IMG/VR virus record: IMGVR_UViG_2597489870_000008
Length of the DNA stretch: 40,859 nt
Direction: 5' to 3' (one strand)
Origin: a virus
Lineage: Duplodnaviria; Heunggongvirae; Uroviricota; Caudoviricetes
The notes under the pieces were generated by a model. That model made no database searches. It saw only the letters and a list, made by a program, of their open reading frames with translations, and was not told the origin of the DNA. The translations under genes were made by a program, and so were the position numbers. Positions 6,613-40,859 of the stretch are shown piece by piece; the stretch's first letter is position 1, and each line of letters opens with the position of its first letter.

Positions 6613-7661
6613 GAAATCGTCCCCAGAACCGCCAGTTCATTTTTTGCAATGGAGATATTGTCCGCCGGTGCAAGCAACTGATGGCTGTATTCCCCGTTCG
6701 CACCGGAAATCGCTTCACTGATACGTGACACCTTCAGTTCTCCCTGCGGATAACCATCACGCAGCAGGAACGAACGCAACTCGGCGGTGATGGCAGCCCG
6801 TATTTCCGGTGTGTCCGGCGTCACGCGGATATGAAAATCCACTTTATGCGCCACCGGCCTGAACACATACAAATCAGAGCCTGCCACCGGGGCCAGTGGC
6901 CCGATATGTTGTCTTGCCGCCGTTTCCGTTGATTCTTCCGGAATGGGATTAATCAGGTCACTGCTGGCAATCATCACACCGACAGTTCCCGTTCCCATCC
7001 AGTGACGGTATGTCCATGCGCGGGTAATGCCGGGCACTTCTTTAGCCCAGACGACATAGTCCCCGTCAGCCCCGCCCTGAGGCGTCCAGTAATACCGCTC
7101 AATGACGCGGGCGCGCCACGTTTCCAGATCTTCAGTATCGAATCCGCCAGTCAGGGTATCTGCAACACCGGAAGACGGCAGACCATTCACCGGCGTGACC
7201 AGGATTAATGCCGTACCGTCGTCAGCGTTACCGACCGCGCCTGTAGTTGAGCAAGTGATCGGCACACGCAGGACACCACCGGAGCTGGTTGCATCGGCAG
7301 TTGCCGTGTACTGAACCAGGTCATCGCGCTGAATCACGCTCCCGGCAGTCACCTTCAGGCCATCACTGACACCTTCCCAGCGCATATACCCGCTGGCAGC
7401 CGTGGCCCCCTTGCGCGGACACCGTTTCATCGCAGCATGTCGCGCCAGCCAGGACTCATCGCACAGGTCAGGCAGCATATTCATTGCCAGATAATCGATG
7501 TACCCGTAAACCGTATGCAGCGCCGCCGCATACACCTTTGCCCGCACGTCTTCATCCATGCGCCGGAGCGTGTCGCTGACGTCCAGCCTGGCGAATAAAT
7601 CGTTACGGAGCATACTGATATTTTCTGCCAGCGTCGGGCGCTGAAATTCACTGTCCGCCAT
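6603..7661 (-). CDS. Baseplate J-like protein (Mu gp47-like)
   Basis: 352-aa ORF in the conserved position and of the expected size; start overlaps the upstream gene. Confidence 0.75.
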
Positions 7662-37402: not shown

Positions 37403-37974
37403 TGAACAACTTAATGATCGACCTTGAGACGATGGGGAAAAATAAGGATGCACCGATCGTTTCCATTGGCGCGGTGTTCTTCACCCCAGAAACAGGAGAC
37501 ATCGGACAAGAATTCTATACGGTTGTCAGCCTAGGCAGTGCTATGAAGCAAGGAGCTACACCTGACGGCGATACCATCCTGTGGTGGTTGAAACAGAGCT
37601 CTGAAGCACGAGCTGCAATCTGTATTGATGATACTTTGTCGATCAGCGATGCTCTCTCAGAACTAAATCATTTCATTAACCGGCACGCAGCCAATACGAA
37701 ATATTTAAAAGTCTGGGGTAACGGGGCCACCTTCGACAACGTAATTTTACGTGGAGCTTATGAGCGAGCAGGGCAAATCTGCCCGTGGGCATACTGGAAT
37801 GACCACGATGTACACACGATCGTTACGCTTGGGCGTTCCATCGGATTCGACCCCAAAATGGACATGCCTTTCGATGGCGAACGGCACAACGCCCTGGCCG
37901 ATGCCCGTCATCAGGCAAAATATGTTTCCGCTATCTGGCAGAAATTAATTCCTGCCACCAGTACAGAATTATGA
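37402..37974 (+). CDS. 3'-5' exonuclease (DnaQ-like DEDD family)
   Basis: MNNLMIDLETMG… (Exo I motif D-x-E) with later …HNALADARHQAKY… (Exo III motif); GAGG RBS. Confidence 0.7.
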   Translation: MNNLMIDLETMGKNKDAPIVSIGAVFFTPETGDIGQEFYTVVSLGSAMKQGATPDGDTILWWLKQSSEARAAICIDDTLSISDALSELNHFINRHAANTKYLKVWGNGATFDNVILRGAYERAGQICPWAYWNDHDVHTIVTLGRSIGFDPKMDMPFDGERHNALADARHQAKYVSAIWQKLIPATSTEL

Positions 37975-38000
37975 TTTTCCCGGGTGCAGCCGGTTTTGAT

Positions 38001-38292
38001 GGAGAAAATTATGAACACCTTGTTTTTACTGATGGCTGAATTCAATACCTCAAACATTGAACTCTCAGCAGTTAGCCAAAAGTACTTTGGTATGAGTCCA
38101 GCCACAGCAGAAGCAAAAGCAAACGCTTGTAAGTTGCCTGTTCCTACATATCGCATTGGCACATCACAAAAAGCAAAACGTTGCATCAATATTCAGGATC
38201 TTGCGGAATACATAGATAAAAGACGAGAAGAAGGACGTATCGAGTGGGAACGGGTCAGAACAGACAAACAGAAGAGCAAAGAACATCACTAA
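38001..38292 (+). CDS. PrtN/AlpA-like small DNA-binding regulator (excisionase-like)
   Basis: MNTLFLLMAEFNTSNIELSAVSQKYFGMSPATAEAKANACKLPVPTYRIG…NIQDLAEYIDKRREEGRIEW resembles pyocin-activator PrtN-type proteins; GGAG RBS. Confidence 0.55.
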
Positions 38293-38346
38293 AGAAAAAA
38301 AACGCATAAAGGCCAATGCCGTTCACTTAAGATGAGCTGCTCTGTA

Positions 38347-38387
38347 TTTCACCAGATAATGTTATTTTGATATCTTAATTTCCCTCG
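38347..38387. repeat. Left 41-bp terminal inverted repeat flanking the CoiA-like gene
   Basis: TTTCACCAGATAATGTTATTTTGATATCTTAATTTCCCTCG matches the reverse complement of 39547-39587 at 39 of 41 positions. Confidence 0.6.
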
Positions 38388-38484
38388 GCTCTGATAGTTG
38401 GGGGCATTTTGTTATGAACACAATACCCAGAACATCCCCCAGATGTTCCTGTCATTTCGGGATGGCAACGAGGATAAGACAGCA

Positions 38485-39519
38485 TCAGAAAAATATTTCA
38501 GCTTTTTTACCATCAAATACCCACTCGCTGGATAAGATTTTCATATTGCTAGCATAATTAAAAGTAAATTCTATCATTATCTTTTGTTTATCATTCGGAT
38601 AGTCGAAAACCTCTAATAAAAAGAAATCTCCTATAATCGAATAACAATGTATGCAACAGTTAGATAAATAACAATCACTGTCTCTGTCCTTAACAGTACC
38701 AATTCCAGCCGCCCAGAGTTTTTTGTTATCCACGTGAGTGGCTATTAGTTCTTTGACATCAGAATCACGAAAAGATAAAAACTTGACGAATACGGACTTA
38801 CTGTAAACAGAAATACCTCTGATAATTCCAGTTCGTTTCTTACATCTCCAGCATTTTGTAACTCGCGATTCTATTTTTGCAGTCAGCACATCCCCAACCT
38901 TTGGGAACCATAATAGCTTTCTGGCAAAAACACCCGCGATAAACTCCCTGACACTAATCCCAAACTGTGGTAGATACAAGTCCCCATTTTCATTCTGACG
39001 CACACCAAAAACAGGTAAATCGTAGCTATGGTATATATTCCCACCATGCTCTTTACTTCCTTTACGTAACTTTCGCAACCACAGTGCACGGACTCCTGAT
39101 GCGATATATCGTTTTTGACGTTCTTTAAATTCATCGTCTTTTTGCGGTGATAACTGTACTTCGAAAACCAGTTTCGCGTTATTTCTGGTACAAAACACAT
39201 CGGCAATCCATTGTTCTCCTGCTGGGGTCGCCCCTTGTTTTTCGGTAGTAACTGACCAGCCAGCATCACTGGCTAATTTTGCGATTAAGAATTTGAGATA
39301 TAAATGTTCTGCGCTTTCTTTCGCATACAGGCAATCGCTTTTGGATTTATGTGCAAAGTAATAGTTATTAAGTTTGCTTGTTTTAGGTATACCAGGCTGA
39401 CCACAGCACGACATAAACAAAGACTGGCTTTTATATGTCTGTTTAAGATATTCCCATTCCTGAGAGTTAAATTCAAAAGAATGAATTTCTTTTCCGTTAA
39501 GTGACGCTTTTAGTGGCAT
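38485..39519 (-). CDS. CoiA-like (competence protein CoiA family) putative nuclease
   Basis: 344-aa AT-rich ORF; N-terminal CCGQPGI…NYYFAHKSKSDCLYAKESAEHLYLKF fits the CoiA signature (Cys pair, FAH, ESxEH) as I recall it. Confidence 0.55.
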   Translation of the reverse strand: MPLKASLNGKEIHSFEFNSQEWEYLKQTYKSQSLFMSCCGQPGIPKTSKLNNYYFAHKSKSDCLYAKESAEHLYLKFLIAKLASDAGWSVTTEKQGATPAGEQWIADVFCTRNNAKLVFEVQLSPQKDDEFKERQKRYIASGVRALWLRKLRKGSKEHGGNIYHSYDLPVFGVRQNENGDLYLPQFGISVREFIAGVFARKLLWFPKVGDVLTAKIESRVTKCWRCKKRTGIIRGISVYSKSVFVKFLSFRDSDVKELIATHVDNKKLWAAGIGTVKDRDSDCYLSNCCIHCYSIIGDFFLLEVFDYPNDKQKIMIEFTFNYASNMKILSSEWVFDGKKAEIFF

Positions 39520-39546
39520 TCATGCTACCTGTATTTACCCTCCCAG

Positions 39547-39587
39547 CGAGGGAAATTAAGATATCAAAAAACCATTATCTGGTGAAA
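39547..39587. repeat. Right 41-bp terminal inverted repeat flanking the CoiA-like gene
   Basis: Reverse complement TTTCACCAGATAATGGTTTTTTGATATCTTAATTTCCCTCG; lies 28 nt upstream of the CoiA-like start codon. Confidence 0.6.
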
Positions 39588-39657
39588 CGCAGTACCATCA
39601 CACTTAAGTGAACGACATTATGTCTAAAGACATTTTAAAAAAATCACCACCTATGAA

Positions 39658-39831
39658 TCATACTGCTTTGCGACGACGAAGCTTACCCTGCTGCTCTTTA
39701 CCAGAGACAGTAACGTGAGTGAACGCATTAGGAGCAGCCTTCATCAGAACTTCAACAGCAGCACCCATACCTGCGAATGCTTTCATTGTGTCGAACTTAA
39801 GCTGTGGCTTGGTTGCTTTTTGATCTTCCAT
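39658..39831 (-). CDS. Small hypothetical protein (57 aa) downstream of the candidate toxin gene
   Basis: Hand-found ORF below the track cutoff: MEDQKATKPQLKFDTMKAFAGMGAAVEVLMKAAPNAFTHVTVSGKEQQGKLRRRKAV, with GGAG 8 nt upstream. Confidence 0.4.
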   Translation of the reverse strand: MEDQKATKPQLKFDTMKAFAGMGAAVEVLMKAAPNAFTHVTVSGKEQQGKLRRRKAV

Positions 39832-39870
39832 AGAAAACTCCAGAAGCTATACCGAAACAATTCCTGTTGT

Positions 39871-40290
39871 TTACTCATCATCAATAGATGATACGCAATA
39901 TTTATTTTTAAATTTAAGGTTCTTTGGCGTAACTTCATCAGATATATCAAAACCGTCCAGAATTCTATTGAATGTAGCTTCTGGCATATCATCATGAACA
40001 GAAATCTCACCCGATCGCTGCTTTCTAACCATGTTATCCACTCGCCAAATTATAGCTTCAGCGTAAACAACATAACTTGGATGCTTGATAAAGCGATGAT
40101 CACCGGAATTCAAAACGCAAGACGGATCGTGGGGGACACCATCCTTGATACTAGAAATATTAACAACTAAAACACAATAACAATCGTTAACGGGGTAATA
40201 AACAGGATCATTACAAATCACATGAAGATGATTGCATGGTCCAGTTGGGGCAAGCACAGTTCCTTTCCTGTATGGCTGATAATCCGTCAT
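39871..40290 (-). CDS. Uncharacterised 139-aa protein translationally coupled to a Panacea-domain gene; candidate PanT-type toxin or defence effector
   Basis: ATG overlaps the stop of the upstream DUF4065 gene (ATGA); AT-rich; Cys/His-rich (…GPCNHLHVICNDP…DPSCVLNSGDHRFIKHPSYV…); no known family recognised. Confidence 0.55.
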   Translation of the reverse strand: MTDYQPYRKGTVLAPTGPCNHLHVICNDPVYYPVNDCYCVLVVNISSIKDGVPHDPSCVLNSGDHRFIKHPSYVVYAEAIIWRVDNMVRKQRSGEISVHDDMPEATFNRILDGFDISDEVTPKNLKFKNKYCVSSIDDE

Positions 40291-40859
40291 GATAATTGCA
40301 AAGAAAATTCCTTAAGTTTCTGAGATTCTTCCATTTTGCCAATTATACGATTAGCCTCATCCTCGCTTTTACCCTCACTGATCAACATTTCTTTCAGGTC
40401 TATAGGCTTACGAGAATTGCCAGGATCGTGCCACTCTGGACAAACGCTTTCTAAATGCGTCATATTTGCGAGATCAAATCGGTTCATATGCCCATACCGA
40501 GAATAGATTTCATCTAAAATCCGGATATCTGCACGACTCAATTCATCAAAGACCTCGTCTGCATCCATTTCCCTCGGATCTGAACGCAACGATACATTAT
40601 GCCCGTTCGTCTCTATCAAGTTGTACCAGTAGTCACCAATGCCTTCAGCCTTACCGCGAATCAAGTTCAGCGTATTCGACATGACTGGTCCAAATTTCAT
40701 AGAGTAAAGGCTATCTTCGCCGATCATCCTGCCATGCTTCAAAATCGACTGGCGGTTAGACAGATAGAGCAGCTTCATCAATTTCAGATATGCCATGCGC
40801 CCACCTCTCTTAAGAAGTAGGTATGCAGCCATTTGAGCTACTTTTTCTTCGCAAAACAT
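40287..40859 (-). CDS. Panacea-domain (DUF4065, SocA/GepA-like) protein; candidate antitoxin (the N-terminus may lie at or beyond the window edge)
   Basis: …MAAYLLLKRGGRMAYLKLMKLLYLSNRQSILKHGRMIGEDSLYSMKFGPVMSNTLNLI… matches the DUF4065 pattern as I recall it; the ORF reaches the last base of the window. Confidence 0.6.
   Translation of the reverse strand: MFCEEKVAQMAAYLLLKRGGRMAYLKLMKLLYLSNRQSILKHGRMIGEDSLYSMKFGPVMSNTLNLIRGKAEGIGDYWYNLIETNGHNVSLRSDPREMDADEVFDELSRADIRILDEIYSRYGHMNRFDLANMTHLESVCPEWHDPGNSRKPIDLKEMLISEGKSEDEANRIIGKMEESQKLKEFSLQLS

Follow-up and report, generated by a model that had tools for sequence, protein, structure and literature searches.

A CoiA-like nuclease gene between IS4-type right ends in an Escherichia coli prophage terminator: a probable mobile insertion cassette

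The window analysed here is a stretch of 40,859 nucleotides from a viral record (Caudoviricetes; IMG/VR IMGVR_UViG_2597489870_000008). Towards its end a gene for a 344-aa protein lies between a PrtN-family/excisionase-like gene (PrtN/Xis-like) and a minus-strand accessory operon (57-aa ORF, 139-aa ORF and Panacea-domain gene) that points toward it. The window comes from a prophage region of E. coli ETEC H10407: the 344-aa ORF and its two flanking arms, i.e. the unit described below, match NC_017633 at 100%. The coordinates of all features are collected in Table 1.

[quoted passage not shown] The first-pass annotation had described these repeats correctly and had taken them as the limits of the element; the true ends lie about 33 bp further out on each side. 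A repeat search widened the inner inverted repeat to 46 nt (91%; 38342-38387 and 39547-39592) and detected an outer inverted pair of 17 nt (94%; 38315-38331 and 39603-39619). Reading of the junctions then gave a whole unit of 1307 bp, from 38314 to 39620, with arms that reach the tips and measure about 74 nt (upstream) and about 155 nt (downstream). Both arms have a conserved terminal block and a conserved inner block, separated by a block of 15 nt that differs from one arm to the other. These repeats are far above the level of chance: the longest exact inverted word within 37500-40859 is 23 nt, the maximum in 100 shuffles being 16 nt, and the terminal 17-mer AATGCCGTTCACTTAAG has two inverted occurrences in the whole window (up to 3 mismatches) for 0.09 expected.

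Table 1. Features of the 1307-bp unit and of its immediate surroundings (window positions)
Feature	Position	Strand	Description
Left flanking gene, outside the element	37984-38292	+	PrtN-family/excisionase-like; Pfam PyocinActivator 1e-22; its terminator is the target
Left target-site duplication	38303-38313	.	CGCATAAAGGC; abuts the element tip; half of the split bidirectional terminator hairpin 3' of the PrtN/Xis-like gene
Left terminal inverted repeat	38314-38331	+	CAATGCCGTTCACTTAAG; same sequence as the IRR (right-end terminal repeat) of the IS4-like IS
Downstream arm	38314-38465	-	Derived from the final ~155 nt of the IS4-like IS; contains the 3' coding end of its transposase gene in decayed form
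Left half of the inverted-repeat core	38342-38387	.	46 nt, 91% complementary to 39547-39592
Passenger gene	38485-39519	-	344-aa CoiA_nuc-domain protein, predicted PD-(D/E)xK nuclease
Leader/RBS	39520-39538	-	Accompanies the ORF where full arms are missing; the passenger proper reaches no further upstream
Upstream arm	39547-39620	+	The final ~74 nt of the IS right end, present a second time and inverted
Upstream-arm terminal repeat	39603-39620		CTTAAGTGAACGACATTA
Right target-site duplication	39621-39631	.	TGTCTAAAGAC; other terminator half; the T/A run of the former bidirectional terminator comes next
Right flanking gene, outside the element	39658-39831	-	57-aa ORF, last gene of the minus-strand accessory operon

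The 344-aa ORF is the only long ORF of the unit that matches a protein family. Residues 68-194 match Pfam CoiA_nuc (E = 7e-10; 39.6 bits for a cutoff of 20.3), in agreement with the initial description of a single CoiA-like gene, while the match to CoiA_N stays below the Pfam gathering score (18.6 bits for a cutoff of 26.3). The protein has two zinc-binding modules, an N-terminal CC..H..C and a C-terminal CxxC...CxxC. Fold search returned a PD-(D/E)xK nuclease, with matches to the R2 endonuclease and to the homing endonuclease I-Bth0305I; no RNase-H/DDE fold was found by this search in the 344-aa protein, and sequence searches of PHROGs and PDB for the nuclease gave nothing. True CoiA is reported to be confined to Bacillota, where it acts with RadA as a D-loop resolvase in competence (bioRxiv 10.1101/2024.02.06.579203). 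For this reason the present protein is not its orthologue, although the two have a domain in common.

Both arms resemble one end of an insertion sequence. When one of them was compared with E. coli genomes by a sensitive search, more than 2300 genomes were matched, almost always at the 3' end of an "IS4 family transposase" gene. By alignment, both arms are about 80-85% identical to the right end of this IS4-like IS over 73-155 nt. The downstream arm (38311-38465) has 81% identity to positions 2423-2577 of the IS-bearing sequence L020 (blastn), and the upstream arm 83.6% to positions 2501-2573 of L020 and 85% to L067. The homology includes coding sequence: the pseudo-translation of the downstream arm, ending in VFITKCPQLSEPREIKISK-stop-HYLVKYRAAHLK-stop, resembles the transposase tail, which ends in VFITKRPRPSRPRAVKISKTRYPVKRSTAPLK-stop, and the translation of the upstream arm, REIKISKNHYLVKRSTITLK-stop, is again the transposase tail. 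The remnant amounts to about 50 codons interrupted by a stop, and the stop codon of the transposase falls within the terminal repeat.

The two termini of the unit are thus both of the IS right-end type, one being inverted relative to the other. The 18-bp tip is identical to that of the IS on the left side only; the upstream tip has drifted, reading TAATGTC in the window and TCATGTC in a second copy, near thiM (see below), where the IS has CAATGCC. The tips CAATGCCGTTCACTTAAG and TAATGTCGTTCACTTAAG both fit the end consensus of the IS4 subgroup, -AATR--------WTW, a subgroup whose direct repeats are 10-13 bp long (PMC2266710). The nuclease gene occupies the place of the transposase gene of the parent IS, in the same orientation, and no DDE transposase ORF (Nterm_IS4 + DDE_Tnp_1) is present inside the element, where the sole family-matching ORF is the CoiA-like gene. 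From this sequence comparison the element appears to be a derivative of an IS4-subgroup IS rather than an autonomous IS. With its 1307 bp and a 344-aa ORF under selection it is also distinct from MITEs, which are non-coding and measure from tens to a few hundred bp. The region upstream of the ORF, initially regarded as enclosed together with the gene, is IS-derived apart from a leader/RBS of about 19 nt.

Copies of the IS4-like IS were found as the insZ remnant of K-12 between adhE and tdk, in the sil island, as a remnant in O157:H7 and, intact, on plasmid p12579_2. The latter copy is 1.43 kb long (1429 bp) and encodes a 446-aa transposase (WP_001130323.1) with the Nterm_IS4 and DDE_Tnp_1 domains. 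Each IS copy examined is inserted at the centre of a GC-rich hairpin, with a target duplication of 10-11 bp: CCCCGTCAGGG for the sil-island copy, CCCTTCTGGG for insZ, which lies inside the adhE terminator, and CCCGCTTCGCG for the p12579_2 IS. In H10407 the adhE terminator is intact and represents a true empty site for insZ. The arm search also indicated one further arm-like sequence in the chromosome of this strain.

A scan with the terminal 17-mer over one genome per species and over viral contigs recovered two kinds of elements across many Proteobacteria: transposase-bearing ISs of 1401-1428 bp and non-coding derivatives of 75-583 bp. The small derivatives whose flanks were read (L031 and L099) lie in hairpins and have duplications of 10-12 bp; this is 12 bp for a 121-bp MITE and 10 bp for a 583-bp element, each in a hairpin. 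A 1287-bp element of Chromobacterium with right-end-type tips was considered as a second cargo cassette and rejected, as it consists of a MITE with a nested IS5-family IS.

The unit of the window has the same kind of target. The related phages Lys8385Vzw, SKA5 and mEp460 match both flanks and lack the insert of about 1.3 kb; in them one hairpin, aaaaaaCCCGCCtgaaGGCGGGtttt, separates the PrtN/Xis-like gene from the 57-aa gene. The cassette is an insertion relative to these phages. For the two strands of the empty-site hairpin of Lys8385Vzw the folding energies are -19 and -16 kcal/mol (z -4.3); those of the corresponding half-sites in the window are at the level of shuffled sequence. Here the duplication has 11 bp and is imperfect: CGCATAAAGGC and TGTCTAAAGAC agree at 8 of 11 positions. 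With the right copy TGCCTAAAGGC of the most divergent E. coli copy (L005), CGCATAAAGGC agrees at 9 of 11. The reconstructed target, AAAAAACGCCTAAAGGCGTTTTTT, is a strong hairpin (-11.8 kcal/mol, z -5.7). The matching half-hairpins on both sides indicate a single insertion event.

A homologue with 89% aa identity adjoins thiM in other E. coli strains, at an unrelated locus. DNA homology between the window and this copy runs tip to tip, from window position 39618 to 38309 (87.6% over 1356 nt), and then ends: the cassette is the same discrete unit at both loci. The thiM-site copy is flanked by a perfect 10-bp duplication, CCTTCAAAGG, inside a palindrome, and its reconstructed target folds as a hairpin. 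The candidate empty alleles for this site (L028 and L029) deviate in a junction stretch of about 45 bp and are not clean pre-insertion sites; insertion at thiM is instead judged from the perfect 10-bp duplication and the reconstructed palindrome. Between the two copies the arms diverge by 11-15%, about as much as the nuclease gene does at synonymous positions (dS 0.157), as expected if gene and arms travelled together; the gene is under purifying selection. The first-pass annotation had suggested a compact mobile cassette or the ends of a non-autonomous element, to be recognised by other copies, empty sites and target duplications; all three were found, in the thiM copy, the three related phages and the 10-11 bp duplications respectively. 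It had also named a repeat unique to this locus as the result that would speak against mobility, and the thiM copy provides the opposite.

Window-type copies are present in 12 of 5426 complete E. coli genomes, once per genome. The six copies examined (the window, L003-L006 and L032) all lie between the PrtN/Xis-like and 57-aa genes, and their orientation is constant, although their prophages are integrated at different chromosomal sites. Only two insertion sites are known, this one and the thiM-adjacent site: a metagenome scan for a third site with a cassette-specific 29-mer gave one contig, again with a thiM-type copy, and megablast of the unit against plasmids gave no match. The cassette may be a fossil that now spreads only with the prophage module, since its upstream tip has drifted, its duplication in the window is imperfect (8/11) and only two sites were found.

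Inverted repeats around a whole gene could also be the crossover sites of an invertible DNA switch, or the arms could pair as a long regulatory RNA stem in a transcript crossing the element. A part of the arm, TATCAAAAAACC, has what we take to be a resemblance to hix/gix sites; its reading as a Hin/Gin crossover site was dropped when the IS homology was found. A Hin/Gin-type system would need a recombinase gene; neither the unit nor the adjoining DNA contains one. All six copies examined point the same way, the repeats show homology to the ends of an IS and have target duplications next to them, and an Rfam search of 37900-40000 gave no match. We therefore give the switch and the RNA stem practically no credit.

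The homologues of the nuclease gene are located on satellites, plasmids, islands and prophages of Proteobacteria, and those outside the E. coli cassettes separate the gene from the arms. In a Salmonella P4-like satellite (79% aa identity) homology to the window covers 39538 to 38480, and arms are absent; on an IncFII plasmid (76% aa) it covers 39547 to 38480. These two copies have in common the ORF, 19-28 nt upstream of it and 5 nt downstream. Upstream, and there alone, the plasmid copy retains in addition a 45-nt IS-end fragment with 93% identity to the IS. At five more distant homologue loci (Morganella, Citrobacter, Salmonella diarizonae and metagenomes) no bracketing repeats were found. 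Since the armless and partial-arm copies keep only the ORF and a short leader, the passenger segment appears to consist of an RBS and an ORF devoid of a promoter. No sigma-70-like promoter was found on the minus strand over 38200-39750; among weak -35/-10 pairs noticed by eye in the upstream arm the best has 8 of 12 matches, and we claim no promoter from it.

The same homologues indicate that the nuclease is cargo and not a transposase, because the satellite and the five distant loci have the gene without arms and the plasmid has it with an end fragment only. The fold points the same way and is in line with the early remark that CoiA-family proteins are not established transposases. The other suggestion made at that stage, an undescribed association between CoiA-like genes and such repeats, finds no support in the comparison with these loci.

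The plasmid copy, with its IS-end fragment on one side, could also be an intermediate stage of another history, in which two IS4-like copies inserted independently around a resident nuclease gene and then lost their interiors. Two inverted ISs with their right ends outward would leave two termini of the right-end type, as observed. But the related phages lack both the gene and the repeats and have one intact terminator, which implies that gene and repeats arrived together, and the half-hairpins that match on the two sides of the window indicate one insertion. The thiM copy, moreover, has identical internal junctions and tips, so the unit moved whole at least once after it was formed. As an account of this locus, independent insertion of two ISs is thus unlikely; it may describe the first formation of the cassette elsewhere.

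More radically, the CoiA-like nuclease could itself be the mobility enzyme, using the IS4 ends or homing on empty hairpin sites, and the unit would then be a new type of autonomous element. The gene sits in the exact place and orientation of the transposase gene, it is under purifying selection, and few of the 5426 complete E. coli genomes (162) have a full-length helper IS. PD-(D/E)xK enzymes do act in mobile elements; the nuclease TnsA of Tn7 is one of them, and the fold of the present protein matches the R2 endonuclease and I-Bth0305I. Against this, the arms are those of a decayed IS with a remnant of transposase coding sequence, so that these ends were shaped by evolution for a DDE transposase. 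Duplications of 10-12 bp and hairpin targets are shared by the unit with transposase-bearing ISs and with gene-less MITEs. The satellite copy and the five distant homologues have no arms, the plasmid homologue has a truncated fragment on one side, and an element with two known sites is not proliferating. In our opinion mobility driven by the nuclease is very unlikely, less probable still than two independent IS insertions.

We are thus fairly confident that the segment 38314-39620 is a non-autonomous mobile insertion cassette (MIC) of the IS4 subgroup, moved in trans by a DDE transposase. Its terminal inverted repeats are homologous to those of an IS (80-85% over 73-155 nt) and it has no internal transposase gene. 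Its duplications have the length of those of the parent (11 bp here and 10 bp at thiM, for 10-11 bp), and it is polymorphic for presence and absence, with two insertion sites. In such a cassette nearly the whole transposase gene would have been replaced by the promoterless RBS and ORF of the CoiA-like nuclease, in the same orientation. Transposition would be of the cut-and-paste type, and a full-length IS of the IS4-like group would provide the transposase in trans; the intact p12579_2 IS (L160) is a candidate helper. Two observations count against this reading: such helpers were found in few genomes (162 of 5426), and in H10407 the insZ site expected to hold one is empty. The cassette would have landed at the centre of the GC-rich terminator hairpin and duplicated 10-11 bp around its loop. 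The nuclease is probably transcribed by read-through from the minus-strand accessory operon upstream, because the operon terminator is split into two weak halves and the passenger lacks a promoter.

IS-derived mobile insertion cassettes are an already described class, of which this one is a further, enterobacterial IS4-family example; our literature search found no description of the present cassette. An odd gene bracketed by repeats is here accounted for by an ordinary mechanism, and our view of transposition is unchanged, while spread driven by the nuclease through IS4 ends or hairpin cutting, if true, would represent a new kind of autonomous element. Genome annotation usually misses mobile insertion cassettes. 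In the present case a promoterless accessory gene dropped into a prophage terminator destroys a strong bidirectional terminator between an excisionase-like gene and an accessory operon.

As for the passenger, its homologues occupy accessory regions of prophages, satellites and plasmids, and for this reason our guess is a DNA-targeting role in defence or exclusion. The CoiA_nuc family of Proteobacteria, as yet uncharacterised, might be a new nuclease directed against phages or plasmids, acting as a single gene and moving among prophages, satellites and plasmids; we hold this tentative idea with some doubt, although it is likelier than mobility driven by the nuclease. The defence models of PADLOC-DB 2.0 gave no hit to the nuclease at E <= 0.1. 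PD-lambda-4B, the defence protein with a "CoiA domain" described by Vassallo et al. 2022, was considered as a support and set aside: the similarity is confined to the N-terminal zinc-finger region, and PD-lambda-4B belongs to a two-gene system. Uncharacterised CoiA-like nucleases nevertheless recur in proteobacterial prophages, P4-like satellites and plasmids, and are therefore reasonable candidates for a defence screen.

Among the closest known systems are the IS4-like ISs of E. coli (insZ and the p12579_2 copy). The 18-bp terminal repeat CAATGCCG(A/T)TCA(G/C)TTAAG is common to them and to the cassette, as are the 10-11 bp duplications at the centre of GC-rich hairpins, and the sizes are 1429 bp (IS) and 1307 bp (cassette). 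The IS has a 446-aa transposase and distinct left and right subterminal sequences; the cassette lacks a transposase and ends on either side in right-end sequence. The terminal repeat is also shared with the MITE-like derivatives of 75-583 bp (Crenobacter, Pseudomonas, Iodobacter, Deefgea, Klebsiella indica and a viral contig), and in several of these, for example those of Crenobacter, of the viral contig L031 and of L143, both tips are of the GTTCAC right-end type, as in the cassette. The hairpin targets with duplications of 10-12 bp recur in L031 and L099. These derivatives differ from the cassette in being non-coding and often multi-copy; the latter has a protein gene under selection and occurs once per genome in the 12 complete E. 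coli carriers.

As a single accessory ORF between phage genes the cassette resembles the "morons" of phages, and by its passenger without a promoter of its own it resembles an integron gene cassette. Morons usually bring a promoter and a terminator and have no terminal repeats or duplications, and integron cassettes use attC sites and a tyrosine recombinase. Its protein has the CoiA_nuc PD-(D/E)xK domain and the N-terminal zinc-finger-like module of the CoiA of Bacillota. It differs from this competence protein in being proteobacterial, in its location on mobile elements, in an extra C-terminal CxxC...CxxC domain and in a sub-threshold CoiA_N match.

The mobile insertion cassettes themselves are also close counterparts; their definition and the history of MIC231 are given in the literature (PMC3913671; PMC3129680). 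In MIC231 of Bacillus cereus, derived from IS231 of the IS4 family, and in the qnrD and qnrS2 "mic" elements of Proteeae and Aeromonas, the repeats of an IS bracket a passenger that replaces the transposase, as in our cassette. As in these elements, target duplications flank the unit, a transposase gene is missing, and the cognate IS is expected to mobilise it in trans. Such mobilisation has been demonstrated for MIC231 and would apply to the present cassette by inference. The parent is within the IS4 family in both cases; here, unlike for MIC231, it is an enterobacterial IS of the IS4 subgroup and not IS231. Finally, the cassette differs from MIC231 and the "mic" elements in its two termini, which are both of the right-end type, measure 74-155 nt and include a remnant of transposase coding sequence, in its passenger, a promoterless nuclease ORF, and in its target, the loop of a terminator hairpin.

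The adhE terminator is uninterrupted in the tdk-adhE intergenic region of H10407, whereas in K-12/DH1 the IS4-like insZ remnant lies exactly at the centre of the terminator hairpin and is flanked by a 10-bp duplication, CCCTTCTGGG. The two alleles are a clean empty/filled pair for the parent IS. Querying the H10407-type chromosome (NZ_CP007594.1 / NC_017633) with the cassette arm returned three places: two are the cassette arms themselves and the remaining one is a further IS-end-like sequence, which is not at the insZ site.

Coordinates of the features discussed
Feature	Sequence	Position	Strand
Uninterrupted adhE terminator	L163, H10407 (NC_017633)	7100-7150	
insZ remnant, stretches compared with L163	L022, K-12/DH1	1560-1590, 2560-2590	
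MITE-like elements, 121-132 bp	L063, L070, L075, L080, Crenobacter oryzisoli		
MITE-like elements, 121-132 bp	L049, L088, L112, Pseudomonas MAG		
MITE-like element, 121-132 bp	L031, viral contig		
Non-coding element	L099, Klebsiella indica	2040-2640	
Nested element	L071, Chromobacterium amazonense	237-1523	
G/C tract, thiM-type cassette	L007	5125-5160	
Right duplication, stretch compared	window	39621-39634	
Right duplication, stretch compared	L005	3815-3830	
17-nt direct repeat	window	38378-38394, 40567-40583	
139-aa ORF	window	39871-40290	minus
SocA/Panacea-domain gene	window	40287-40859, continues past window end	minus

Elements of 121-132 bp, MITE-like and present in several copies per genome, carry the same 18-bp tips. 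In the viral contig, where the flanks were read, a 12-bp duplication borders the element, which is inside a GC-rich hairpin. These elements look like a widespread family of miniature elements targeting terminators. The non-coding element of K. indica is longer (583 bp) and its two tips differ in type, one being left-end and the other right-end; it is bordered by a 10-bp duplication, GCCGATCGGC, within the hairpin AAAAAAGCCTGCCGATCGGCAGGCTTTTTT. The C. amazonense locus was considered as a cargo cassette and rejected: it only mimics one, being a MITE that belongs to the same family as these elements and is split by an IS5-family IS (321-aa transposase).

The right duplication varies among the cassette copies of the window-type site: it is altered on both sides, reading GCC...GGC in L005 and GTC...GAC in the window, L003, L004 and L006. 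The small hairpin at this place is kept despite the change, and residual selection on the stem is possible. In the thiM-type copies a G6-ATTTTCAAAAAAA-C13 tract downstream of the nuclease gene shows a 20-bp indel between strains (L007 vs L008); from this comparison the homopolymer-rich tract appears unstable.

The left arm, at its inner end, shares a 17-nt direct repeat (16/17 identical) with a site within the Panacea-domain gene. A rough calculation gives a chance expectation of ~0.02-0.05, and the repeat is probably a coincidence.

Elsewhere, the CoiA-like homologues of Salmonella (L013-L015), the IncFII plasmid (L016-L019) and Morganella and relatives (L023-L026) have toxin-antitoxin-like neighbours (TumE, a weak Cas2-like match, HTH), together with Phage_antitermQ and AlpA/DUF927 primase genes. 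These loci are satellite and plasmid accessory regions, a setting that agrees with the nuclease being defence or exclusion cargo. Beside the cassette itself, the 139-aa ORF, which has no Pfam match, overlaps the SocA/Panacea-domain gene by 4 nt. The two genes look like a Panacea-type toxin-antitoxin pair adjoining the cassette; PADLOC returned no match.
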